DNA of 24,998 bases, from positions 1 through 24,998 of the IMG/VR virus record IMGVR_UViG_3300032163_000097; one strand, given 5' to 3'. Below the pieces are notes generated by a model. It was not told where the DNA came from and did not search any database. It saw nothing but the letters and a program-made list of their open reading frames with translations. Positions 522 to 17,766 of this stretch are shown here, piece by piece; position 1 is the first letter of the stretch, and every line of letters starts with the position of its first letter. The stretch comes from a virus (taxonomy: Duplodnaviria > Caudoviricetes). A program made the position numbers and the translations under genes.

Positions 522-1663
522 TTAAAATGCCCGTAAAAGGATCGAGAAGTGGGATTTTTACTACCTGTAATTATTGTGGAGAAACAATTTATGTTTATCC
601 TTATCAATTAAAAAAGTTTAAATTTCATTATTGTAATGCCGAGTGTAGGGGAAAGGGGCATGAACCAGATGAAGAGACAAGGAAGAAATTAGGCAAGAGT
701 CATCTTGGTCAGCCTTCTTGGAATAAAGGGTTACGGAAAGAAACCGATCCTAGAGTTAAAAGGATGGCGGAAAGCCTTATCGGAAGACCCTCCTACCGAA
801 AGGGTATGTCTTATGAAGAGGAGTATGGAGAAAAGCGAGCCAGAGAGATTAAGGAAAAACTTACAGGTCATATCGCTTGGAGTAAGGGTTTAACAAAAGA
901 AACCGATTCTAGAATTAAAAGGGGAGCCGAACGCCGTACTGGGAGACCTTCCCATCGGAGGGGTGTGTCTTTTGACGAAGAGTATGGGGAAGAGCGAACC
1001 GAAGAGATTAAGGAAAAACTAAGCCAAAGCCATATAGGTCAAGTTCCTTGGAATAGAGGGTTGACCGTTGAAACAGATGAAAGAGTCAGAATAAAGGCGG
1101 AAAATCAGTTAGGAAGAGCGGTTTCCCCAGAAACTAAAGAAATTCTTAGTATAAGAGCCATAGAAGGATATGAAAACGGCAGAATAAATCCTATGAAAGG
1201 AAAGAAAAGATCAGATGAATGGAAACTTAATCAATCTTTAGTTAATAGAGGTAGGGTTCCTAGTGCAGAAGCAAGGCAAAAACAATCAGAAAGTATGAAA
1301 CTCCTTTATTTAAATCATCCAGAAAAACACCCAAACGCTCGTATGAGAAAAAATAAAAAGATGACGAAAATAGAGAGATTAACAAAAGAGTTCTTCGAAC
1401 GACTAGGATTTAAAATGGGAGAAGATTTTGTATATCAATATCTAGTTGTTTGCTCAAGGGGGACAAAATGGATAGATTTCTATTTCCCAAAATTTAAATT
1501 GGGCATAGAGTGTGACGGTTCTTATTGGCATCAAGATAAGGAGAAGGATAAGAAGAGAGACGAAGAGATATTATCCTTTTTAGGAGAAGGTAATATAATA
1601 GAGCATTTAACGGAAAAAGAAATTTTTAGTTTAAGATATTTACAAGGTGTAAAACATGTCTGA
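509..1663 (+). CDS. free-standing putative homing endonuclease (Zn finger, NUMOD3-like repeats, DUF559/Vsr-like nuclease domain)
   Basis: N-terminal CxxC...C finger; three W(N/S)(K/R)GLxxETDxR(V/I) repeats; C-terminal IDFYFPKFKLGIECDGSYWH...DKKRD motif; more AT-rich than flanks. Real start may be ATG 527. Confidence 0.8.
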   Translation: MDGVIKMPVKGSRSGIFTTCNYCGETIYVYPYQLKKFKFHYCNAECRGKGHEPDEETRKKLGKSHLGQPSWNKGLRKETDPRVKRMAESLIGRPSYRKGMSYEEEYGEKRAREIKEKLTGHIAWSKGLTKETDSRIKRGAERRTGRPSHRRGVSFDEEYGEERTEEIKEKLSQSHIGQVPWNRGLTVETDERVRIKAENQLGRAVSPETKEILSIRAIEGYENGRINPMKGKKRSDEWKLNQSLVNRGRVPSAEARQKQSESMKLLYLNHPEKHPNARMRKNKKMTKIERLTKEFFERLGFKMGEDFVYQYLVVCSRGTKWIDFYFPKFKLGIECDGSYWHQDKEKDKKRDEEILSFLGEGNIIEHLTEKEIFSLRYLQGVKHV

Positions 1664-3665
1664 TGAAGGAAAAAAGAGACCGTCAATTTTGCATCCTATA
1701 GCTAGAGCGAAGTGGGATGCTATGCGGTCTAGTTATAACGATGTTGTGGCTAGGGTGTTGCCCGCGGACGAAGCCGCCCGGTCTGATGTGGATCTCCCCC
1801 TGCAATGGCGTCAGGAACCGATTCAGTGGATTCTTTCAACTTTAGGGATTAAGAAACCTCCGGTTGGCTCTGGCGCCGGGTTCGTTCAGAGTCCGTACAT
1901 GGATATATATACCAAAACTTTTGGAACGACTCCGCTGGCGGATTTACCTAAGTATAGGTTGATGTTCAGAAATAATCCAGATATTATGGCCGCTATTGAG
2001 ATGCAGGCAAATTTGGCGATTGGGCGGGGGTTTTCGATATCCCATCCCAATAAGGAGGTTGTAGACTATTTAACTAGGCTCTGTGATAGGTTGAACGTAC
2101 AAAATGTGATGCTTGTCCTAGCGGCGGATTGCTTGATTTATGGGAACGCCTACGCAGAAATCTGTTACGATAAGCAAACCGATGAAATGGAGCCTCTATA
2201 TGATTTCAAGGGGGAAGCCTACACCAAAAAGGAACTAGAAGAAATTGGAGTAAAGGACGCACCGCAGGCGATGGCAAAAAATAGGTGGGTTCTGGACGAG
2301 GAGAAGATGGAGAATAAGCTCGTAGCCTTCGATAATCCCGTGCCTTTCACCGCTCAGGTGATCAGAAAGGCGGAAGACGCCGAGACTATAATTCAGTTAA
2401 AGCCGTTGGATCCTGTCTACATGCGTGTCAGACGGGATAGTTACGGGAATGTGTTTGGATTTATACAATGGATGAACTTCCCCCCGGCACTGATAGATAC
2501 AGATTCGATGATGCATATAAAATATCGCGAGAAGTCGTGGGGTTATGAAAGTGCGTATGGGACAAGTATTTTAATGCCTCTCGTAAAGAACAACGACCTC
2601 TTCAACCAGTTCGAGACCGATGCCGCCGTCTGGATTCATAGCAGAGCTGTGCCCCCCCTAATCGTTCAGGGAGGAAGCACAGAGAAGCCATACACCACAG
2701 CCCAGATGACCGACCTCATGTCGAAGCTCAAGGGCAGAACCGCCGCATCGATGATCTTCACGAAGGGCGACGTTCAAGTCAACGAGGTCGAGGGCGCGGC
2801 TAGGGCTCTCAACGTACAGTGGTGGGTTGACCTGCTCTTAACGAGACGCTATCAGGCTCTCGGAGTTCCACCCGTGCTTATGGGTTTACCCCAGAGCACC
2901 GGGAACCAGAGCGTGGGCGAGGTCATCTTCCAAGAGTTCGTCACCCGCCTCCAACTCTTGCAGGAGTTTTTGTCGGACGCATTCGAGACATATGTATTCT
3001 ATCCCCTAATTTTGAAGAAATTCGGGGAGACTATGGAGGACGAAAGCGGAAAGAAAATACCGATGCCAAAAGCTGAGATGGTATGGAAACCTATCATAGA
3101 GGAGGACCGCAACATGCGGGCTCAGAGGCTCATTCAGGGAGTCCAAGCCGGAACCATCAGTGTGAACGAATACCGCAAGGAGATGGGCTTCAAGGTGCTG
3201 GATGACCCCAAATACGACGAGATCAAGCCCATGGTGCCCGCCCAGATTCCATCGGGCACGCCCTTCCAAGACCAGAAGGTGAAGGACATCACGACGGTCC
3301 CGGAGGGGGTTCGGAAAAAGGATATCCCAGCGCCCCCGGTCGCACCTATAGAGATGAGCACCGAATTCAAGAATAATATGGTCGATGTGATCAGGGAGGC
3401 TAAGGCTTCTCTGGATGCGGGGAAGAGTTCTAGGGCGGTCAAGTCCGAGGCTAAGAAGAGGGCCAAGGAGCTGATCAACAAGTATGTTGTGTCCTTCTAT
3501 ATACAGGGGAGGGCCAAGGCGAACCTATCGCTGAATAAAACCGATGACATGAAGCTGAAGAAAGAGGAGATGCCCAAACTCATAGACCTCAAGAAGAAAT
3601 ATGAGAAGGACTTCGATAAAATCCTGACCGAGATGATAGAGGCCGATAAAGAGGGGAAGGCGTGA
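1656..3665 (+). CDS. portal protein with a C-terminal helical extension
   Basis: DCLIYGNAYAEI, LKPLDPVYMRVRRDSYG, YGTSIL, ALGVPPVLMG and GTISVNEYRKEMGF match phage portal signatures; first gene of the head module. Confidence 0.9.
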   Translation: MSDEGKKRPSILHPIARAKWDAMRSSYNDVVARVLPADEAARSDVDLPLQWRQEPIQWILSTLGIKKPPVGSGAGFVQSPYMDIYTKTFGTTPLADLPKYRLMFRNNPDIMAAIEMQANLAIGRGFSISHPNKEVVDYLTRLCDRLNVQNVMLVLAADCLIYGNAYAEICYDKQTDEMEPLYDFKGEAYTKKELEEIGVKDAPQAMAKNRWVLDEEKMENKLVAFDNPVPFTAQVIRKAEDAETIIQLKPLDPVYMRVRRDSYGNVFGFIQWMNFPPALIDTDSMMHIKYREKSWGYESAYGTSILMPLVKNNDLFNQFETDAAVWIHSRAVPPLIVQGGSTEKPYTTAQMTDLMSKLKGRTAASMIFTKGDVQVNEVEGAARALNVQWWVDLLLTRRYQALGVPPVLMGLPQSTGNQSVGEVIFQEFVTRLQLLQEFLSDAFETYVFYPLILKKFGETMEDESGKKIPMPKAEMVWKPIIEEDRNMRAQRLIQGVQAGTISVNEYRKEMGFKVLDDPKYDEIKPMVPAQIPSGTPFQDQKVKDITTVPEGVRKKDIPAPPVAPIEMSTEFKNNMVDVIREAKASLDAGKSSRAVKSEAKKRAKELINKYVVSFYIQGRAKANLSLNKTDDMKLKKEEMPKLIDLKKKYEKDFDKILTEMIEADKEGKA

Positions 3666-5941: not shown

Positions 5942-6115
5942 ATGGAGGAAATAACTAAGAAAGAAGAGGACGGGGAAACATCCAGTCCCGTCCCACCCGA
6001 GTGGGCTCAGGAAATCCAGAGGGCTCTGGATGGGTGGAGGGACGCAGTTTTTGTTCAGGATGTAGTCGGGGTTCTGAGGGAGAAATCGACTCAGAAAATC
6101 AGCAAGCAGGAATAG
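5942..6115 (+). CDS. 57-aa hypothetical protein; not in the ORF track
   Basis: MEEITKKEEDGETSSPVPPEWAQEIQRALDGWRDAVFVQDVVGVLREKSTQKISKQE; WAQEIQRAL resembles a segment of the prohead protease. Confidence 0.6.
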   Translation: MEEITKKEEDGETSSPVPPEWAQEIQRALDGWRDAVFVQDVVGVLREKSTQKISKQE

Positions 6116-6167
6116 CCTGCATCACTGTAACTGCGTTGGATAGGCGCAAGCGAGAGAGTTGGGGGCT

Positions 6168-6377
6168 GGCACCGCGGCATTGATCTTGCCGAGGATGTAA
6201 TCTCTTTGAACGAAGGATTGATCCTCCTTCGGGATAAGGGTTAGACCCCGATTATGGAGCGCGGGCTGATTCCAGCGCAAGTGCCCTTCCGGGGTAGGAG
6301 GAAGACCTAGAGGTGTGGGGTAGGTCTTTGTTCGGGTGCTATCACACCCTAATTCCCGAGGCTCCTGCCCCGGGAGG
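6168..6377 (+). ncRNA. candidate structured RNA of unknown class
   Basis: 15-bp stem 6286-6300/6362-6376 closes a three-way junction with two hairpins whose loops are complementary. Additional stems 6168-72/6281-85, 6175-79/6187-91, 6191-96/6221-26, and a cUUCGg hairpin at 6225-6234. Strand assumed from G-U pairs and context. Confidence 0.5.
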
Positions 6378-6448
6378 TTAAAAGAGGAGATTATTATAAA
6401 TCCTATGGAATGATGTAGTAAATTGTCTAAAATTTGCTGTGAGGTTAA

Positions 6449-6637
6449 ATGAAATTGTTTGATGATCCAATCGCTTGGTTTACCAAAATTTATTGCGCGA
6501 AATGTAAAACAAAGAGTTGTATGCCTAAAGGGATGATATACACTACCGACCCAAGCTCGAAGGCTCTATGCGTATTATCCTTGCTCTTGATGCTGGAAAC
6601 AGATCGAGGGTTAGCCAAAAGGACAAAGAGGGATTAA
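6449..6637 (+). CDS. small Cys-containing hypothetical protein
   Basis: GAGG RBS; CAKCxxxxC...C. Confidence 0.55.
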   Translation: MKLFDDPIAWFTKIYCAKCKTKSCMPKGMIYTTDPSSKALCVLSLLLMLETDRGLAKRTKRD

Positions 6638-6653
6638 GGGGGGTTAGTTATCT

Positions 6654-7718
6654 ATGTCTAATATTTTAAGAGAGACCGATGCGGAGATTTCCAGCTTTAG
6701 TGGTTCCAATATAACTTCGTTTGAAGTCGGAAAGCCCGTTTATAACAAATTTTTCGACAATACTTCAGGAAAATGGGAACGTTGGTCGGGCTCGGGCGCT
6801 CCTTTTGTTCGTTTTATTCCCTCTTTAGAGGATTCTGCAACCAATAGCGTTCGTGTTGATATTGTTGCCGGGGATATAGAACTCGGAACAATAGGAATAA
6901 CTGGCTCAATTGGTCTTTCTGTTACGGGCTCGAATGTAATAAAAAATGTAGGAATTGACATTACAGGCTCAATAGGAAAATCTATCACCGGTTCCATAGG
7001 TCTTTCTATCACGGGATCGTCTACCCTTACCGTTCAAGGTTCGGTGGGAGTAACAGGATCAACCCCTCTTATAGTAGATGCTAGACAAAGTGGTAGCTGG
7101 AATATCGCAGGTGGTTCTGTAGGGATAACAGGATCGGGCATCCTAAACACCCTAGTTATAAACACGGGTTCAGTACCCGTTAAGGCTCAACTTACACATG
7201 CTACAGGTATAGCCCTTCCTCTAGATGAGGATGTGGGAATGCTTGCGATAATAGATATCGACCATTATATGATTCATAGTGGCTCGCATTTCTTTGTAAA
7301 TGATGTTAGTTCTGGAAGCGTGGGAGTACCTAAAAACTGGTTGTTTGTTTCACCAGCCACGGGAGAAGTTCACGCTTATATTCAAACTTCTAATGCCGCC
7401 GCAGGAACTTGGAGATTCTGGGAAGATATACCTGTGAGTAATAGTGGTTCTCAAGGAACCGCGTATAATAATAATAGGCAATCTGAGAAGACTGCTGGAT
7501 TAAAGGTTTATAGCAATCCTGTGACCGGTTCTGGTGGAACTTTAATTGCAGTATTCTATATGGGAACTATTACACAAGGAAACGCTAAACCGGGGGGGTT
7601 AGCCGAAAGAAACCAAGAAGTTATACTAAAGACGGGTTCTAGATACGCCCTACAATGGGAGCCGGATTCTGGAACCGTTATGTGCGCGATTAACGCCCAA
7701 TGGTATGAAGTAGCTTAA
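6654..7718 (+). CDS. putative virion fibre/decoration protein (TGS-rich beta repeats)
   Basis: Repeated (I/V)TGS(I/V)G units followed by a globular C-terminal domain; paralogous to 8075-8803. Confidence 0.6.
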   Translation: MSNILRETDAEISSFSGSNITSFEVGKPVYNKFFDNTSGKWERWSGSGAPFVRFIPSLEDSATNSVRVDIVAGDIELGTIGITGSIGLSVTGSNVIKNVGIDITGSIGKSITGSIGLSITGSSTLTVQGSVGVTGSTPLIVDARQSGSWNIAGGSVGITGSGILNTLVINTGSVPVKAQLTHATGIALPLDEDVGMLAIIDIDHYMIHSGSHFFVNDVSSGSVGVPKNWLFVSPATGEVHAYIQTSNAAAGTWRFWEDIPVSNSGSQGTAYNNNRQSEKTAGLKVYSNPVTGSGGTLIAVFYMGTITQGNAKPGGLAERNQEVILKTGSRYALQWEPDSGTVMCAINAQWYEVA

Positions 7719-7770
7719 TAAATTAACTAATGTAACAAGTATAACAAGGAGTTAAAAGAGATTGGCATCC

Positions 7771-7795
7771 GGAAATAACTAAGAATATATAGAAG
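7771..7795 (+). repeat. 25-bp direct repeat, copy 1 (GGAAATAACTAAGAATATATAGAAG)
   Basis: 24/25 identical to 7973-7997; related copy at 9475-9500. Confidence 0.85.
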
Positions 7796-7805
7796 GTATA
7801 GCCTT

Positions 7806-7994
7806 TTGCCTAAACACATTTTCCCAAACGATGAGTCCGCCCACCTCGTGGAGTTCGCCAAGGGTTGGAACCCGAGGACGGTTCTTGAGGTGGGTTGCGG
7901 CGAGGGGCGGGAGTTGATGCTCATAGAGCCTCACGTGGGGAGGGTCTATGGTGTTGACCTAGCCTATTTTTTGGAAATTACTAAGAATATATAG
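7806..7994 (+). pseudogene. class I SAM-dependent methyltransferase fragment
   Basis: VLEVGCGEG (motif I) and VYGVD; truncated where it runs into repeat copy 2; no clear RBS. Confidence 0.65.
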
Positions 7995-7997
7995 AAG
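7973..7997 (+). repeat. 25-bp direct repeat, copy 2 (GGAAATTACTAAGAATATATAGAAG)
   Basis: One mismatch to 7771-7795. Confidence 0.85.
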
Positions 7998-8074
7998 AGG
8001 GATATGGTTCAAAGTTAGTTTTCGGATACGAAAATGGAGGTTAAGTGAATGGTTAATAAAAGGAGGAGTGAAAT

Positions 8075-8803
8075 TTGTCGCTAGGACCGACGGTCGAAAC
8101 GAGTGTCGTGAAGGCACCAGCATACGATCTCGCAGGAGATGTACTGAAGGTTAAGCTCAGTGGCTCCTATGTAGACCAACCAACTACTATAAAAATCCAT
8201 AGTGGCTCTGGATACACCGATGTCGGGTACTCAGGGAGCGATCTTTCAATTCCGGTGACGGTGATCGCTGGGGATATTGAGTTTGGAACGATAGCTATCA
8301 CGGGTTCAACCGTGACCTTCCCAGTGACGGGTTCCGTGGACGCTAGACAATCTGGTTCTTGGAACGTGGACGCACGCCAGAGTGGTTCATGGGGGGTTGG
8401 TGTAACTGAAGATATAGGGAAGTCTATCACAGGCTCTATAGCACTAACCGTTTCCAATCTCAGAGTTACGGGCTCCTTAACGACCACGCTTTATTCCGCG
8501 TTTAACTTTGCTTTAGGCGCTACGGGCTCAACGGGAAGTGGGAACTTTAATGTCACCCAATATTCGGGCAAGAGCGCCTACGCTTTTATTGGCACCACCC
8601 AGAACGCCTCGGGATCGCTGATAGTCTCGGGTTCCTTTGATGGGGGAACAAATTATTTCCAGTTCAGAAGCGGAAGCTTCGGGTCGGGGAGCCTGCAATG
8701 GTTCACATTCTTCGATGGTGTGACCCATATCTCCGTGAACCTTTTCAACCAAGTCACGGGTTCCGCGGTTTCTGGGAGTCTCTACTTAGTGGCACAGGCG
8801 TAG
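8075..8803 (+). CDS. putative virion fibre/decoration protein, paralog of 6654-7718
   Basis: Shares AGDIExGTIxITGS, DARQSGSW and IGKSITGSI with 6654; AGGAGG RBS before a TTG start. Confidence 0.6.
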   Translation: MSLGPTVETSVVKAPAYDLAGDVLKVKLSGSYVDQPTTIKIHSGSGYTDVGYSGSDLSIPVTVIAGDIEFGTIAITGSTVTFPVTGSVDARQSGSWNVDARQSGSWGVGVTEDIGKSITGSIALTVSNLRVTGSLTTTLYSAFNFALGATGSTGSGNFNVTQYSGKSAYAFIGTTQNASGSLIVSGSFDGGTNYFQFRSGSFGSGSLQWFTFFDGVTHISVNLFNQVTGSAVSGSLYLVAQA

Positions 8804-8821
8804 GGCGGGGAGGAGGAGCCA

Positions 8822-9475
8822 TTGAGCATAACAAAAAAGGGAGTTAAGAGGCAATATGGTATCGAGCCGGGGTTGGTTCTATGGCTTCCCTTCGATGGCG
8901 ATGTCCGGGACTATTCTGGGAATAGTAACCATGGGTTGAATTATGGGGCGTCATGGACGACGGGGAAGATCGGAGGTGCCCTCAGCTTCAACGGCGTAGA
9001 CAACTATATTAATTGTGGTTCTGCTCCAAGTTTAGATGACTTGACAACTTTTACATATAGCTTTTGGCTAAAGTCAAACTTACTGAATCAGAACGGTATA
9101 TCCCTAAGCAAAAAGTTTTGGTGGTCAAGAATAGAGAACGATGATAAATTCAGAATGAATATTTCCGCCGCTACTACTGCCGCAGATACAAAAACGACAC
9201 AAACTATTGGCACTTCAGCTTGGAAACATATCGTGATGACTTTCGATAATTCTGGCGATAGAAAAATTTACATTTACATAAATGGAGCTGAATCGGCATA
9301 CGATAACCAAACAGCAGCAGTAGGAGCCTTAACATCTGATGCTGCTAATTCTTTATGGATAGGCAAATATTATGATGGTCAGTATCCTTTTAAAGGCGTC
9401 ATCGATGAGGTTCGCATCTACAACCGCGCCCTCATCGCCGCCGAAATCTGGGATTTGTACCAGAGGGGATTGTAG
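8822..9475 (+). CDS. LamG/concanavalin A-like domain protein
   Basis: LVLWLPFDG..DYSGNSNHG, GKIGGALSFNG.DNYI, WKHIVMTFD, FKGVIDEVRIYNRAL. Confidence 0.9.
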   Translation: MSITKKGVKRQYGIEPGLVLWLPFDGDVRDYSGNSNHGLNYGASWTTGKIGGALSFNGVDNYINCGSAPSLDDLTTFTYSFWLKSNLLNQNGISLSKKFWWSRIENDDKFRMNISAATTAADTKTTQTIGTSAWKHIVMTFDNSGDRKIYIYINGAESAYDNQTAAVGALTSDAANSLWIGKYYDGQYPFKGVIDEVRIYNRALIAAEIWDLYQRGL

Positions 9476-9500
9476 AAAGTTACTAAGAATATTATAGAGG
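9475..9500 (+). repeat. degenerate third copy of the 25-bp repeat (possible promoter element)
   Basis: GAAAGTTACTAAGAATATTATAGAGG, directly after the LamG stop. Confidence 0.65.
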
Positions 9501-9509
9501 TGTTTATGT

Positions 9510-9665
9510 ATGACGGTATGCGGGATTTGTGGTCGGACCCTTGGGAGCCAAGAGTCAACCTATCATAGGGATGTCAGGAAACAGGGGGCTACTTCATATA
9601 CGAGCGTTTTATGCGCGGACTGTGCGAACCGCTTTCCAAATAGTTATACCCAAAAGGAGAGATAA
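9510..9665 (+). CDS. 51-aa Zn-finger protein; not in the ORF track
   Basis: MTVCGICGRTLG...LCADCANRF...; GAGGTG RBS. Confidence 0.65.
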   Translation: MTVCGICGRTLGSQESTYHRDVRKQGATSYTSVLCADCANRFPNSYTQKER

Positions 9666-9702
9666 AACATTTAGGTTTACAAAGAAATTTTGGTGAGTAA
9701 GA

Positions 9703-10716
9703 ATGGAGAAGGGATGTAACTATGGTCCGGGGCTTTGTAGAAAATGCGGTAAAGATCATGGTATACATCCTTGCTTAGGTAAACCGGGGCACCATCATTC
9801 TGAAGAAACTAAGAAAAAAATAAGTGATACTAAAAAGGGAAATAAAAATCCGATGTTTGGGCATACATATGGTGATATTCCTTGTATTAAATGTGGAAAG
9901 ATTCATACTCCCAATAGGGGAATGTTAGGAAGACGCCACACGGAAGAAACTAAAATAAAAATGAGTGAAAATCATAAAGGGTCGTTAGGAAAACATTGGT
10001 TTCATACAGAAGAATGGAAAAGGGATATGAGCAATAAATTAAAGGGTAGGCATCTTTCTGATGAACAAAAGGAACAAATATCGATTGTTCATACAGGTCT
10101 TCATCCATCTGAAGAGACTAGGGTGAGAATGAGTGAAGGAATGAAAGGAAAAAATAAAGGTAAAAAACGCACGCCGGAACAGATTGAACTATTTAGTAAA
10201 GTTCGTAAGGAGGAGTGGGAAAATCTTACTCCCGAAGAAAGAATGAAACGAGGAGCTATATCAAAGGAAGTTCAGAATAGACCCGATGTTAAAGCCAAAA
10301 AAAGCGAAAAACTTAAAAAGTCTTGGATAAACGGAGATTTTGATGAAGCAAATATGGGTGCGCGTGGAGTTGGAGGAAAACGATCCGATCTTAATGACCA
10401 GTTTTTCCGTTCTACTTGGGAAGCAAATTTGGCGAGAATTATGAACTATCATAAGATAAAGTGGGAATACGAACCTAAACGCTTTGATTTTGGAGAATTT
10501 AGTTATTGCCCCGATTTCTACCTACCCGAAACTGATTCTTGGGTTGAGGTGTACGGTTATCTAGATGAAGATAAAGCGAAAAAACTTTGGGCTATCTCCA
10601 AGTTAGTGAATATTCAAATTGTAAATGAAACCATCTATGACCAACTTAAAAGTGAGTTCAAGGACAAACTACCTTTCTGGGAGAATGGGAGAAAAAAGGT
10701 GAGTAATGATAAATGA
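9703..10716 (+). CDS. free-standing putative homing endonuclease (NUMOD3 repeats plus PD-(D/E)xK nuclease)
   Basis: HSEETKKKIS and HTEETKIKMS repeats; FRSTWEANLA...WEYEP...YCPDFYLP...VEVYG; AT-rich relative to flanks. Confidence 0.8.
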   Translation: MEKGCNYGPGLCRKCGKDHGIHPCLGKPGHHHSEETKKKISDTKKGNKNPMFGHTYGDIPCIKCGKIHTPNRGMLGRRHTEETKIKMSENHKGSLGKHWFHTEEWKRDMSNKLKGRHLSDEQKEQISIVHTGLHPSEETRVRMSEGMKGKNKGKKRTPEQIELFSKVRKEEWENLTPEERMKRGAISKEVQNRPDVKAKKSEKLKKSWINGDFDEANMGARGVGGKRSDLNDQFFRSTWEANLARIMNYHKIKWEYEPKRFDFGEFSYCPDFYLPETDSWVEVYGYLDEDKAKKLWAISKLVNIQIVNETIYDQLKSEFKDKLPFWENGRKKVSNDK

Positions 10717-11501
10717 GCACCGAAATCTTGTCTCCAGTCGATCAGCCATCGCTTTTATACCCCGCGTTGTATGGGGTGAAGCCTCGGCGGAAGGATTATC
10801 GGTGCAAAAGATGCGGCTCCGACAACCAGACGTGCCTCAGGGCTGAGACGAAATACTTCAGGGGGGGGAATCTCGAAGATGTTTTCTTCGACTTCGAGTG
10901 CGGATGCGGGAACGCTTTCTTCGTCGCCGCGAAGCTGCTGGTGAACGAGGTTCTGGAGGAGCAGATGGAGAGAATCTTCAACTTCACCAAGGTGACGGGC
11001 AAGGAGTTCGGGGCGCTGGTGATCAGGACCGTGGACGGGGATATCATTCTGGATATGTTCCAGATTGGGGAGAACCGCGAGGTGGAGATGGTTCCGACCC
11101 ACGAGATGAGGGAGGGGGAGGAGATTCTTGGAACCATGCATGTCCACCCCCAGTCACCAACATTTTCCTTATACGATCTGGCAACTATGATTCGCGACAA
11201 GAGATGGGAAAAGATAAGCATGGTGGCGGGGGCGGACGGGAGTTTCAACGTCGCCATACCCACCTCGAAGACGCCTAAAATGGAGGATATAGGCGCGTGG
11301 CTCAAAGAGAACGAGAATATGAAAGACGAGGACGGGAATGTAGACGCGGTGGGGTTAGCCAACAAGTATAACTTTCTGTTATACCGAGGGAAGGCGGATA
11401 ACCTGAAGTTGATTTCGGCGGATGATATTAAGACGTATACCTTGGAGGACTTGTTTAGGCGGGTCTCCGGGGTTAAGAATATAAAGGAGAGTAAGAAGTG
11501 A
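10713..11501 (+). CDS. JAB/MPN (JAMM-motif) metalloprotein with a Zn ribbon and an MCP-like N-terminal peptide
   Basis: KEFGA plus HVHPQSPTFSLYD (HxH-x7-S-x2-D-like); CKRC and CGC. Confidence 0.75.
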   Translation: MSTEILSPVDQPSLLYPALYGVKPRRKDYRCKRCGSDNQTCLRAETKYFRGGNLEDVFFDFECGCGNAFFVAAKLLVNEVLEEQMERIFNFTKVTGKEFGALVIRTVDGDIILDMFQIGENREVEMVPTHEMREGEEILGTMHVHPQSPTFSLYDLATMIRDKRWEKISMVAGADGSFNVAIPTSKTPKMEDIGAWLKENENMKDEDGNVDAVGLANKYNFLLYRGKADNLKLISADDIKTYTLEDLFRRVSGVKNIKESKK

Positions 11502-14431: not shown

Positions 14432-14463
14432 AAAAAATAAAAAAATAAAAGGAGGAAAATGAA

Positions 14464-15558
14464 ATGTCTTTATCTAGAGAAATTCTTAGTCCAGTAACTA
14501 CAGCCGGCTTGCTATACGAGAGGGATGAACAGTCTTCTCGGGCAAAATCCCGCGCTGCACACACTCGTAAGCCAAATCGCCATGCCGAACATGGTGGCGA
14601 GAGAGTAAGTAGTTCAAACCTTTTGAGCTATTATTCCGCCAGACAATTTCTGCAAAACTACAGTCTGACCGCCAGTAACTCAATAACCTTCCCGAAGCAG
14701 TCAGGATCGCCAGCGGCGGTCGTGAACCAAGTCGCGGAGGGCGCTGAGTTCCCGATGGATGTCACCGCGTACAGTGCTGTAAACGTCGTTCCTTACAAGG
14801 TCGCGCATGGTTTTATAATCACGCGTGAGACTATTGAGGACAGCCTCATTCCTATCCAACAGGATCAGCTTGCTCGTGCCGCTCTGCGTGTCGCGAACAA
14901 GGTTGACAAGGATTGCATCAGTGTAATCAACACGGGTAGGAGTGGCTCGACGGCGGCAACAGGAAAATCGCTTGCGCTGAATGGCACTGAGTTCGTCTTG
15001 AGTGGCTCTGGAGGCTTGGGTATCGGCATGTATACTCCTAAAAGGAGTAGTGTAAACGATATCATAGCCGCGAAGAGCCTTGTGGAGAACAACAACTATA
15101 TGCCTGATAGAGAAAGTAGTAATAAAATATTATTTCTCCGGGAAACGTTGTTAGTTCACCCACGAGCGAAGGTGTTCATAGAGAGGCTTCCGCACTTCAC
15201 GGCTCAGTATTCGTACGGAGAGCCGAGAATGCAGACGGGCTTCATAGCGACGCCGGGTAAGTTTGGTGATATCTTGGGACTAGATGCTTATGCTTCGACT
15301 AACTGCCCAACGGGCTCCGCATTCGTGCTGAGCAGGGGCAGAACCACGAACATCCTCGGCCAGTATAAAGGAGTCGGGTAACTCTAACTTCTTGCTGAAA
15401 GTCCGTTAGGATTCTTCGTGGAAAGAAGGCCCATCACCACAGCGATAAAGCCGCTCGAAGAGAGGGATAGCATCGGCATCTATGTGTCTATGAGGTACGC
15501 ACCAACTGTAATACGCGGCGAGGCCGCGTGCGAGATCACTGGTATCAATGTGAGCTAA
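14464..15558 (+). CDS. HK97-fold major capsid protein split into 6 exons: join(14464..14515,14547..14601,14643..15031,15056..15108,15145..15366,15400..15558), 309 aa
   Basis: Spliced product MSLSREILSPVTTAGLLYPALHTLVSQIAMPNMVARQFLQNYSLTASNSITFPKQ...VAEGAEFP...YKVAHGFIITRETIEDS...GIGMYDIIAAKSLVENNNYMPDTLLVHP...GDILGLDAYAST...GQYSPLGFFVERRPITT...DSIGIYVSMRYAPTVIRGEAACEITGINVS. Exons total 930 nt. Confidence 0.92.
14516..14546 (+). other. BHB intron 1 of MCP (31 nt, frameshifting)
   Basis: Central helix UGCU(14510-13)/GGCA(14541-44); bulges AU^A and AA^A; intron stem CGAGAGGG/UCUUCUCG; ligation gives CTA TAT CCC (L-Y-P). Outer helix imperfect. Confidence 0.88.
14602..14642 (+). other. BHB intron 2 of MCP (41 nt, frameshifting)
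   Basis: Central helix GGCG(14596-99)/CGCC(14637-40); bulges AG^A and AG^A; stems GAGUAA/UUAUUC and UAGUUCAAA/UUUGAGCUA; ligation gives GCG AGA CAA (A-R-Q). Outer helix weak. Confidence 0.9.
15032..15055 (+). other. BHB intron 3 of MCP (24 nt, in-frame)
   Basis: Outer helix UAUCG/CGAUA; central GCAU(15026-29)/GUGU(15050-53); bulges GU^A and AA^A; stem UACUCCU/AGGAGUA; ligation gives ATG TAC GAT (M-Y-D). Confidence 0.88.
15109..15144 (+). other. BHB intron 4 of MCP (36 nt, in-frame)
   Basis: Outer AUG/CGU; central CCUG(15103-06)/CGGG(15139-42); bulges AU^A and AA^A; stems GAGAAA/UUUCUC and UAGUA/UAUUA; ligation gives CCT GAT ACG (P-D-T-L-L-V-H-P). Confidence 0.9.
15367..15399 (+). other. BHB intron 5 of MCP (33 nt, contains an in-frame TAA)
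   Basis: Outer GGC/GUC; central CAGU(15361-64)/GCUG(15394-97); bulges AU^A and AA^A; stem AAGGAGU/ACUUCUU; ligation gives CAG TAT AGT CCG (Q-Y-S-P). Confidence 0.92.
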
Positions 15559-16145: not shown

Positions 16146-16646
16146 ATGGTTTCCACCGATCCCGTTATCAAGACCCTGAGTCTCCTAAGCTCTAGCTGGA
16201 GTCTCACGGGCAACCTAACGGGCTCCAACCTAAAATTCGGAACATACTGGCTCCGCGGTCCGCCCGACGTGATCCGGGATAACCGCTATTGGGTTGTCGT
16301 AAAGTGCTTCAACCCTAGAAGCACGCTTTTAACGACCGGGGCGCAACCTCTTTACCGCCACGACGAACTCCTGACCGTTGGGGTCTATGTACGGGTTGAC
16401 AGCGATAGAAACGCCACCACCTTGGGGCAGGGGAAGGCGGATATCTACAACATGCAAAAGGAGGTCGAAAGGGTTCTCTTCTCGGGAAGCAGGATCGCAA
16501 CGGGGAGCGCGGATGGTTCGAGCGGCAGGGAAGATTTCTTAATAGTGGGGAATTGGCGCGAAATGGATGAGACGAACTGGCTCCCTATTCTGTACAGGAG
16601 GGAGCTAGAGGTAAATTATTGTTATCACGAGAGTGGTTCAACATGA
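16146..16646 (+). CDS. putative tail terminator/neck protein
   Basis: Position, size and beta-rich pattern (LTVGVYVRV...EVERVL...YRRELEVNY); start reassigned to ATG 16146 after a GAGGGAG RBS. Confidence 0.55.
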   Translation: MVSTDPVIKTLSLLSSSWSLTGNLTGSNLKFGTYWLRGPPDVIRDNRYWVVVKCFNPRSTLLTTGAQPLYRHDELLTVGVYVRVDSDRNATTLGQGKADIYNMQKEVERVLFSGSRIATGSADGSSGREDFLIVGNWREMDETNWLPILYRRELEVNYCYHESGST

Positions 16647-16969
16647 TAGAAACGAAGGAACTCATCGAGGATTTCCTAGAGGAGAACTGGGAGAAAATCA
16701 GAAAGACCTATCCCAACGTGATAAACGTGGGGGTCGGCAACAAACGCATTAATGGGGCGGAGACGGACCAGCCCTGTATAGTTTTCTACGTCTCCCAAAA
16801 AAAGCCTCTAGCTGTGCTTAAACCCGAGCACCAGATTCCAAAGGTATTGGACGAGGTGCGAACAGATGTCGTGGAGTTGAGCGCGAAAGACTATGTAATG
16901 GGCGAGACGGAGCCCAGCAAACTGCCTCATAGGGTTCAAAAGAGGCTAGCGGGAGGGGTCAAGCGGTGA
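16643..16969 (+). CDS. stand-alone protease prodomain-like protein (Nal1 N-terminal-like)
   Basis: PNVINVGVGNK..NG.ETDQPCIVFYVSQKKP...L.PEHQIP..LD.VRTDVVE; ATGA overlap at 16643. Confidence 0.6.
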   Translation: MIETKELIEDFLEENWEKIRKTYPNVINVGVGNKRINGAETDQPCIVFYVSQKKPLAVLKPEHQIPKVLDEVRTDVVELSAKDYVMGETEPSKLPHRVQKRLAGGVKR

Positions 16970-17766
16970 GCGTTGATTTGCGCCCCCTTTGCAGCCCTAT
17001 TCGGAATCAGGGGCAATGCGGAAGTTGCACCGCCTTTGGCACCGTTGGGGCATGGGAGGAAATTCTGCGCAAACTCACTCCCGGGGATGACACGGACCTT
17101 TCGGAGAAACATCTATTTTTTTGTAGTGGCGGAAAATGTAGTGAAGGGAATACTCCAGATGCCGTTCTCAACCAAGCCACGAAAGGTGTCTGCATCGAAA
17201 GTTGTTTACCCTATGGAATAACAAGCTCAGGCATCGACTCGAAATGCGCGAGCGGGATTTGCGACAACTGGTGGGAGAAGGGGAAAAAGTTAGCCTCTTG
17301 GAAATCTGTTAAGGACGTAAATGAGATGAAGAATATTCTCCAGCAGGGGCACGCCCTAGCCACCACGATGGCAGTTCACCAAAGCTTCATGAACTTTTGC
17401 GCGGGGGTTTATCATAGCCTCGGGGCCAGCGATCCCATTGTGGGATACCACATGATCAGTTGTGTTGGTTTTAGCGATGGTCTGGGGGCGTGGTTGATAA
17501 GGAACAGCTGGGGCACAGGCTGGGGCGAATCTGGGTACGTTTGGATAAAATACGGGGATAGCGAAATAGACTCGGAGATGTACCAACTCATCCCCGATGG
17601 CGAAATTCCCCCTCAACCGGGCCCAACGCCCTCGCCGTGTTCGGTTGGAAATGGAGTCGCGGTGATCATGAATTTCTTTCCGTGGATTTTGGGGAGGAAG
17701 GGAAGATTTTATTATATGAATTTCAACAAAGTGAGTAATTGTAAAAAAGGAGGAAAACGAACATGA
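16966..17766 (+). CDS. papain-family (C1A) cysteine peptidase
   Basis: SVDLR...PIRNQGQCGSCTAF (Gln, Cys), GYHMISCVGF (His), WLIRNSWGTGWGESGY (Asn). Confidence 0.92.
   Translation: MSVDLRPLCSPIRNQGQCGSCTAFGTVGAWEEILRKLTPGDDTDLSEKHLFFCSGGKCSEGNTPDAVLNQATKGVCIESCLPYGITSSGIDSKCASGICDNWWEKGKKLASWKSVKDVNEMKNILQQGHALATTMAVHQSFMNFCAGVYHSLGASDPIVGYHMISCVGFSDGLGAWLIRNSWGTGWGESGYVWIKYGDSEIDSEMYQLIPDGEIPPQPGPTPSPCSVGNGVAVIMNFFPWILGRKGRFYYMNFNKVSNCKKGGKRT

Follow-up and report, generated by a model that had tools for sequence, protein, structure and literature searches.

A bulge-helix-bulge (BHB) intron is found in the pre-mRNA of the crenarchaeal cbf5 gene, for which splicing has been shown (Yokobori et al. 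2009, PMC2738675). That paper describes a relaxed motif in the cbf5 BHB introns and proposes that these introns are possible deletion derivatives of ORF-bearing introns, the proof of which needs the long form (PMC2738675). In Haloferax volcanii, the 5′ UTR of HVO_1309 contains a BHB intron, an mRNA substrate of the splicing endonuclease; cbf5 is named there as the only other mRNA BHB case as of 2020 (Schwarz et al. 2020, PMC7714728). At the 16S rRNA locus, long nuclease-coding introns, remnant introns and hairpin BHB introns of <50 nt have common sites, according to the accessible text (PMC4496867; also PMC8598171), and homing can also bring about the co-conversion of adjacent hairpin introns (Jay and Inskeep 2015, PMC4496867). 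Protein genes in the genome of an archaeal virus contain 12-bp insertions that are putative introns (Peng et al., cited in PMC2738675). As far as the citing paper describes them, these insertions are in frame, their splicing was not shown, and neither a BHB nor a nuclease is mentioned (PMC2738675). Three further sources (PMC11291895, PMC3082918 and PMC13465236) hold, in their available portions, tRNA or rRNA introns or references only. In a literature search that covered few subscription papers and no supplements, protein genes of archaeal viruses were nowhere described as having BHB introns.

The ORFs of organellar group I/II introns are startless, lie in frame with the upstream exon, and are made from the unspliced precursor as a fusion to the N-terminal part of the host protein. 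These introns are self-splicing ribozymes with the ORF in the exon frame, whereas the BHB introns described below are predicted to be spliced by protein, and half of their ORFs need a retained upstream micro-intron that shifts the frame.

The gene considered here encodes a viral capsid protein (MCP) and lies in a 24,998-nucleotide stretch of viral DNA, IMG/VR record IMGVR_UViG_3300032163_000097, which is referred to as the window. While the cellular gene cbf5 has a single intron site with one intron, five are predicted in this single viral gene and 20 sites are known in its family; moreover, long and short forms of a viral mRNA intron are both in hand, in the relative L020 and in the window. 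The HVO_1309 intron is single, cellular and located in a non-coding region, unlike the viral capsid set. Archaeal rRNA introns reside in a gene that has no frame constraint and, in the accessible text, their nucleases are LAGLIDADG (PMC4496867), whereas the viral intron ORFs are mostly DUF559/Vsr-like (9/11) and appear tied to the capsid start codon and to upstream intron lengths. In the literature found, so far as its text could be obtained, the archaeal mRNA introns are those of cbf5 and one 5′ UTR, while here one essential viral gene would need five splicing events. What sets this case apart is a viral mRNA with several predicted introns and a likely route, by way of intron retention, to a nuclease that lacks its own start.

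The five inserts of the capsid gene

The window contains a head-tail module with a portal gene at 1656-3665, a neck protein and an HK97-type MCP. The MCP was called as an ORF at 14464-15381, which matches PF25209, PF05065 and phrog_544. Its best match among solved structures is PDB 8QPQ, a structure of a haloarchaeal tailed virus. By its family matches, and by the portal in the head module, the product is assigned to the HK97-fold MCPs. An HMM search of the genome found one capsid gene only on the contig.

All features of the gene lie on the + strand. A Shine-Dalgarno-like AGGAGG (14450-14455) is located 8 nt ahead of the capsid ATG. A second ATG occurs five bases upstream of the capsid start and opens a 12-codon overlapping ORF in another frame (14459-14497). 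Exon 1 (14464-14515, 52 nt) encodes codons 1-17 and the first base of the invariant Tyr18. It is followed by intron 1 (14516-14546, 31 nt, 3n+1), which has the BHB central helix UGCU/GGCA at a pair probability of 0.92-0.95, forms 6/6 tested stem pairs and is free of stops in the entering frame. Exon 2 (14547-14601, 55 nt) reads YPALHTLVSQIAMPNMVAR in the capsid frame and is open in the shifted frame too. Intron 2 (14602-14642, 41 nt, 3n+2) has the central helix GGCG/CGCC and carries a TAA at 14606-08 in the capsid frame. Exon 3 (14643-15031, 389 nt) precedes intron 3 (15032-15055, 24 nt), an in-frame insert with a full BHB of which L020 has an identical copy. Exon 4 (15056-15108, 53 nt) precedes intron 4 (15109-15144, 36 nt), also in frame and with a BHB. 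Exon 5 (15145-15366, 222 nt) precedes intron 5 (15367-15399, 33 nt), which has a BHB and is in frame with a TAA stop. Exon 6 (15400-15558) includes the stop codon and is missing from the database protein.

The inserts were placed by spliced alignment, blind to RNA structure, against a profile of 48 intronless homologues, with resulting lengths of 31, 41, 24, 36 and 33 nt. Introns 1, 3, 4 and 5 fall exactly on BHB cut sites, and intron 2 was placed with the right length but 6 nt off its BHB cut site. In the manner of archaeal tRNA introns, each insert is bounded at its junctions by two 3-nt bulges, in which the predicted cut follows the second base, and forms a stem of its own. The central helix, which pairs the exon with the far intron end, has 4/4 pairs in 5/5 of the window introns, and the intron-side helix has 6/6 tested pairs in all five. 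The exon-side helix is contiguous in introns 3-5, while its first pair is mismatched in introns 1 and 2. This is a relaxed motif, and the host enzyme must therefore tolerate the mismatch. Apart from this relaxed exon-side helix of introns 1 and 2, the inserts carry every defining feature of archaeal BHB introns that is testable in sequence, and they are likely cut from the viral mRNA by the host tRNA-splicing endonuclease and ligase.

In the local fold, the central helix of intron 2 has a pair probability of only 0.06-0.13, because a hairpin in exon 2 competes with it, and forcing the BHBs of introns 1 and 2 together costs 2.6 kcal/mol. This hairpin (14582-14601) spans the A-M-P-N-M-V codons and is the exon helix of the codon-32 introns in relatives. 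In competition with the BHB of intron 2, it could set the order of splicing. At the intron 1 site, the central helix is paired in 20/20 cells over five related sequences, with one two-sided change. Covariation there is otherwise weak; two of five measures did not beat shuffles (175/500 and 235/500). A structure-only BHB scan of the window gave 81 hits on the + strand and 43 on the − strand compared to 64-80 in five shuffles, and is uninformative; all of the intron calls rest on homology first.

Other classes of intron were considered and rejected. Group I or II introns have a ribozyme core of some hundreds of bases, for which inserts of 24-41 nt have no room, and the window has no Rfam match. 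Spliceosomal introns (GT...AG) do not fit the ends, which are AC..AA, AG..AG, AT..AA, AG..AA and AA..AA.

An earlier note on this DNA had proposed that introns 1 and 2 compensate each other's frameshift and thereby hide exon 2. The positions and lengths that it gave for intron 1, exon 2 and intron 2 (31, 55 and 41 nt) all check out. Unspliced RNA is open but misreads exon 2, since the frame from the ATG at 14464 reads ERDEQSSRAKSRAAHTRKPNRH; the frame of 14465 holds PALHTLVSQIAMPNMVARE, which is closed by the TAA at 14606-08 within intron 2, as had been claimed. Removal of intron 1 alone gives 37 aa, and removal of intron 2 alone gives 57 aa. As judged from these frames, the hidden 55-base exon needs removal of both introns to be read in frame. 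In silico removal of all five inserts yields a product of 309 aa that aligns gapless to four homologues and restores the invariant Tyr18. The fully spliced form is the best of 32 splice combinations, with 576 bits compared to 393 bits for the unspliced form. It is identical to the intronless homologue P0003 at 275/309 residues and to the spliced L020 protein at 301/309.

Homologues support the same frame. A search with the unspliced ORF returned 89 proteins (88 non-self), of which 48 are full-length (308-322 aa). The motif YPxL...MPN[ML] (YPALH...MPNM in the window) is present in 46/48 of the full-length homologues, and in three of these it is exactly PALHTLVSQIAMPNMV. Homologues matching the alternative ERDEQ frame, which the earlier note had named as contrary evidence, number 0/48. 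The sole ERDEQ-like match among the 88 non-self proteins is P0085, which was itself translated from unspliced sequence; the relative that it comes from has an insert at the corresponding site. In the HMM search of the genome, the interval 14549-14614 matches profile positions 19-40 on its own (E 9e-6). The predicted switch of frame and return is thus borne out by the profile alignment, by the motif and by the separate exon 2 match. Among eight intron-bearing genes, differences within exon 2 (81 in total) are distributed 57/14/10 over codon positions 3/1/2 of the capsid frame. The note had also expected a wrong database MCP, and entry P0001 is indeed the unspliced 305-aa product, which is also 52 residues short at its end, owing to the stop in intron 5.

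The conserved 309-aa capsid is obtained only if the inserts are taken out at the BHB cut sites, and the ends of intron 2 are those of the corresponding L020 intron. BHB splicing of the gene is very probable. The 16 runs listed for this sequence include no RNA run.

Inserts and nuclease introns in related genes

Of 82 loci, 55 close ones were analysed, with the window's own record (L008) left out of the relative counts, and N-terminal inserts called in distant loci (26-38%) were dropped as unreliable. Seventeen loci of relatives contain inserts, 57 in all and distributed over 20 sites, and a complete 4-bp BHB helix is present in 53/57. Both helix and stem were passed by 47/55 machine-placed inserts compared to 3.4% of 20,000 random placements. 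An 830-nt call in L020 consists of two introns (40 + 790 nt), which were placed by hand. No insert was called in 31/55 close loci. Seven 39-nt "inserts" near codon 239 represent a 13-aa protein indel and were rejected; 0/7 of them pass the BHB test, and the indel was excluded from the insert counts and served as a control. The capsid family has at least 20 insert sites and up to nine inserts in one gene: nine BHB inserts are found in the L047 capsid gene (L047:4747-6706), and seven in that of L034 (L034:4786-5966).

The inserts differ between close relatives. The window and L020 have three sites in common and differ at five. In run X3, DNA contigs lack introns 1, 4 and 5 to the base (31, 36 and 33 nt), so that the neighbouring exons are directly joined. 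By this comparison, intronless alleles are present in close strains for these three introns.

Across the 17 loci, with duplicates collapsed, the lengths of short introns are 3n in 15, 3n+1 in 14 and 3n+2 in 4. None of the 3n+1 introns up to codon 32 is interrupted by a stop when read in the entering frame. Over all short introns, such stops occur in 11/33 compared to 19.4 in shuffles (P about 0.0015, with a shuffle that ignores the hairpin), and this depletion may be inherited from ancestral ORFs.

The window introns (24-41 nt) contain no nuclease ORF, while long versions at the same sites in relatives have one. At the intron 2 site, L020 has a nuclease-coding intron of 790 nt, and L041 and L055 have introns of 785 and 762 nt. 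L047 has a 750-nt nuclease intron at the site of intron 4, and L032 has a 608-nt LAGLIDADG intron at the site of intron 5. In total, 11 long introns with ORFs were found in ten loci, of which 9 are DUF559/Vsr-like, 1 is LAGLIDADG and 1 is unassigned. The L020 intron ORF encodes a DUF559/Vsr-like nuclease with DNA-binding-type N-terminal domains; a search of IMG/VR for this nuclease gave no further copies. Contig 4 of run X2 agrees with L020 in the distance between two anchor points (920 bases), and the continuation of a loose end in run X3 is that of L020.

Intron 2 of the window and the 790-nt intron of L020 agree in their first 15 and last 14 bases, while the middle 12 bases of intron 2 are absent from the L020 intron. 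This suggests that intron 2 is likely the remnant left by internal deletion of a nuclease intron of the 790-nt type. An origin in the opposite direction, by insertion of a nuclease ORF into a short intron, would be a less simple alternative. The comparison between the window and L020 is the kind of long-short comparison that Yokobori et al. 2009, in the available text, named as the missing proof of a deletion-derivative origin (PMC2738675).

Proposed frame coupling and competing explanations

The nuclease ORF of L020 starts at the first base of its intron, in a shifted frame. Reading in the capsid frame ends at intron codon 2, and the ORF is open from the capsid ATG only with the upstream 3n+1 intron retained. 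In most cases the ORF of a long intron takes up the whole intron, beginning with the first codon. Among the 11, 5 are in the capsid frame, 5 are shifted, and 1 (L036) has an ATG at codon 4. In all five shifted cases, the capsid frame meets a stop at intron codon 2, and the ORF is open from the ATG only if the upstream 3n+1 intron stays. The L036 ORF is unreachable from the capsid frame, and that of L023 needs the upstream intron removed.

With just the L041 nuclease as the query, 5 strong matches were obtained, and 5/5 are capsid-leader fusions through the shifted frame (xGxER); two of these, P0086 and P0105, were judged from the protein alone. The shift in the five fusions is supplied by inserts near codons 18, 30 or 32, which are three sites. 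At codon 48, L030 and L081 have homologous nucleases (46% identical) in different frames, each of which fits its own upstream intron (76 vs 36 nt). These cases of frame coupling are few and related, and between 5 and 12 of 13 intronless genes, according to the span considered, have no stop in the shifted frame in any case.

The shifted nuclease ORF, together with the fusions through a retained upstream insert, makes it likely that the frame shift of intron 1 is a relic switch, by which unspliced RNA would have given nuclease and spliced RNA capsid. The ERDEQ...HGGER stretch of the window would then be the remains of the leader of a capsid-leader/nuclease fusion. In the proposed course of events, unspliced or partly spliced pre-mRNA would be translated into a capsid-leader/nuclease fusion, and this nuclease would promote homing into intronless capsid genes, while fully spliced mRNA would give capsid. 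The nuclease would then have been lost from intron 2 of this virus by internal deletion, leaving a 41-nt remnant that happens to restore the frame and so hides the exon from gene callers. This history of a retained-RNA fusion with homing, followed by deletion to a frame-restoring remnant, is considered fairly likely. The explanation in its broader form, in which the inserts are BHB-spliced and the intron 1 shift is a relic of nuclease read-through, is held with somewhat greater confidence, as probable. For the family as a whole, the available loci tilt toward alternative splicing by intron retention, in which tiny tRNA-type introns would be frame switches, one start codon would lead to capsid or to a startless nuclease, and intron lengths would be co-adapted. 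The mRNA introns would then be disseminated by homing and shrink to micro-introns, and a comparison of close strains would reveal the cycle.

The arithmetic of the earlier note is correct, since 31 + 41 = 72 nt keeps the unspliced RNA in frame, but the compensation was probably not selected, and the shift of intron 1 is its informative part. The long introns at the intron 2 site return to frame in 2/5 cases (L041 and P0086 do, while L020, L055 and P0105 do not), which is the chance level, and the return in the window is probably a one-in-three accident of deletion. It seems unlikely that the splicing is as described and the compensation was nonetheless selected, either because it kept the RNA open to a former nuclease in intron 4 or 5 or because it avoided ribosome stalling on the pre-mRNA. 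Such selection would agree with an unspliced RNA that is stop-free through introns 1-4 and has its first stop in intron 5, with the long nuclease introns of L047 and L032, which are in the capsid frame at the sites of introns 4 and 5, with P0088, in which a shifted stretch is followed by capsid-frame sequence and this in turn by a nuclease, and with short introns being poor in stops. However, three downstream nuclease ORFs need upstream introns removed rather than retained, and the window gene has no nuclease left. Circular archaeal rRNA introns are known, and nucleases of such introns are made from the excised circle or from internal starts. If this were true of the viral introns as well, the match to the upstream frame would be a coincidence. 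Possible internal starts (ATG, GTG or TTG) are indeed present in 9/11 nuclease ORFs, and the ATG at codon 4 in L036 would serve in the same way. This reading is nevertheless improbable, as the ORFs are open from the first codon of the intron, 5/11 would be endless reading frames if the intron were circular, 5/5 of the site-36 nucleases are open from the capsid ATG via three different upstream inserts, and the frames are swapped between L030 and L081.

Two further readings would do without splicing. In phage T4 gene 60, the ribosome bypasses a stretch of mRNA with matched take-off and landing codons, and in intron 2 two AGA triplets match at a distance of 41 nt, with a stop close by as well as a hairpin. 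That the inserts are skipped by the ribosome, through bypassing or frameshifting, is still very improbable: matched triplets are found in 1/5 of the window introns and the other four have none, intron 1 splits the invariant Tyr18 codon, versions of 600-880 nt have the same ends, and bypassing does not need a 4-bp helix that pairs the exon with the far intron end. Equally hard to credit is a decayed or mis-assembled gene in which the hairpins are neutral insertions. The source is a metagenomic contig that is 24% complete, which would allow for such errors, but exon changes between the window and L020 keep a codon-position bias (54/14/5 at positions 3/1/2), independent contigs and runs have inserts at the same sites, and the gene is the sole capsid gene on the contig. 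These observations largely refute decay or mis-assembly and leave BHB splicing, with the intron 1 shift as a relic of nuclease read-through, as the preferred reading.

Annotation, likely host and neighbouring genes

The suggestion that such introns are systematically missed in databases holds within the capsid family. At least 18/88 non-self database matches are mis-called and show a retained insert or a nuclease fusion. Many more matches begin at internal methionines, where introns and contig ends are indistinguishable. Frame-neutral sets of introns yield plausible but wrong proteins. In L047, the 750-nt intron is stop-free and in frame, and results in database fusions that look like inteins (P0074 and P0060).

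If BHB splicing of the gene is true, the virus depends on the tRNA-splicing enzymes of its host to make capsid, and mRNAs with several introns, and with isoforms that are functional through retention, are workable in archaea. This would have a bearing on the possible emergence of intron-rich genes and alternative splicing where there is no spliceosome.

The virus record behind the window is linear and 24% complete, and the host was approached through a relative. G002 is a 106-kb relative with a family MCP that is 73% identical. It encodes a family B polymerase (archaeal-type PolB) nearest to Deep Vent-type enzymes, as well as an archaeal-type RFC small subunit and a Hef/XPF-type nuclease; its PriL match is weak. 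These replication genes of G002, rather than the window contig, point to an archaeal host. No EndA or RtcB was found in the incomplete relatives G001 and G002, and there are no tRNA genes in the window or in 15 loci. A search of GTDB genome contigs for a host, with the capsid alignment and the G002 polymerase, gave no match, and a search of GenBank phages gave two weak Staphylococcus phage matches only.

Several neighbouring genes have features of their own. The N-terminus of a JAB-domain protein encoded at 10713-11501 closely resembles that of the capsid protein (MSTEILSPV...LLYPALY compared to MSLSREILSPV...LLYPALH in the capsid), and the resemblance is present in L003 too. This likeness is possibly a capsid-incorporation tag or a common processing signal. 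Two free-standing genes for NUMOD3 + PD-(D/E)XK-like endonucleases (509-1663 and 9703-10716) overlap the starts of the portal and JAB genes, and their domain type is related to that of the intron nucleases. About 4.6 kb (6112-10713), containing a LamG protein, an endonuclease and unknown ORFs, separate two genes that are adjacent or fused in L003. This segment was considered as an intron relative to the single L003 ORF and rejected, as it has no convincing BHB and other relatives begin the gene at 10713. In the tail region, a small NAL1_N-like ORF is followed by a papain-family (C1) protease (16619-17766), an arrangement conserved in L020. The G002 locus L085 (G002:40001-60000) contains about a dozen clustered glycosyltransferase, epimerase and methyltransferase genes.
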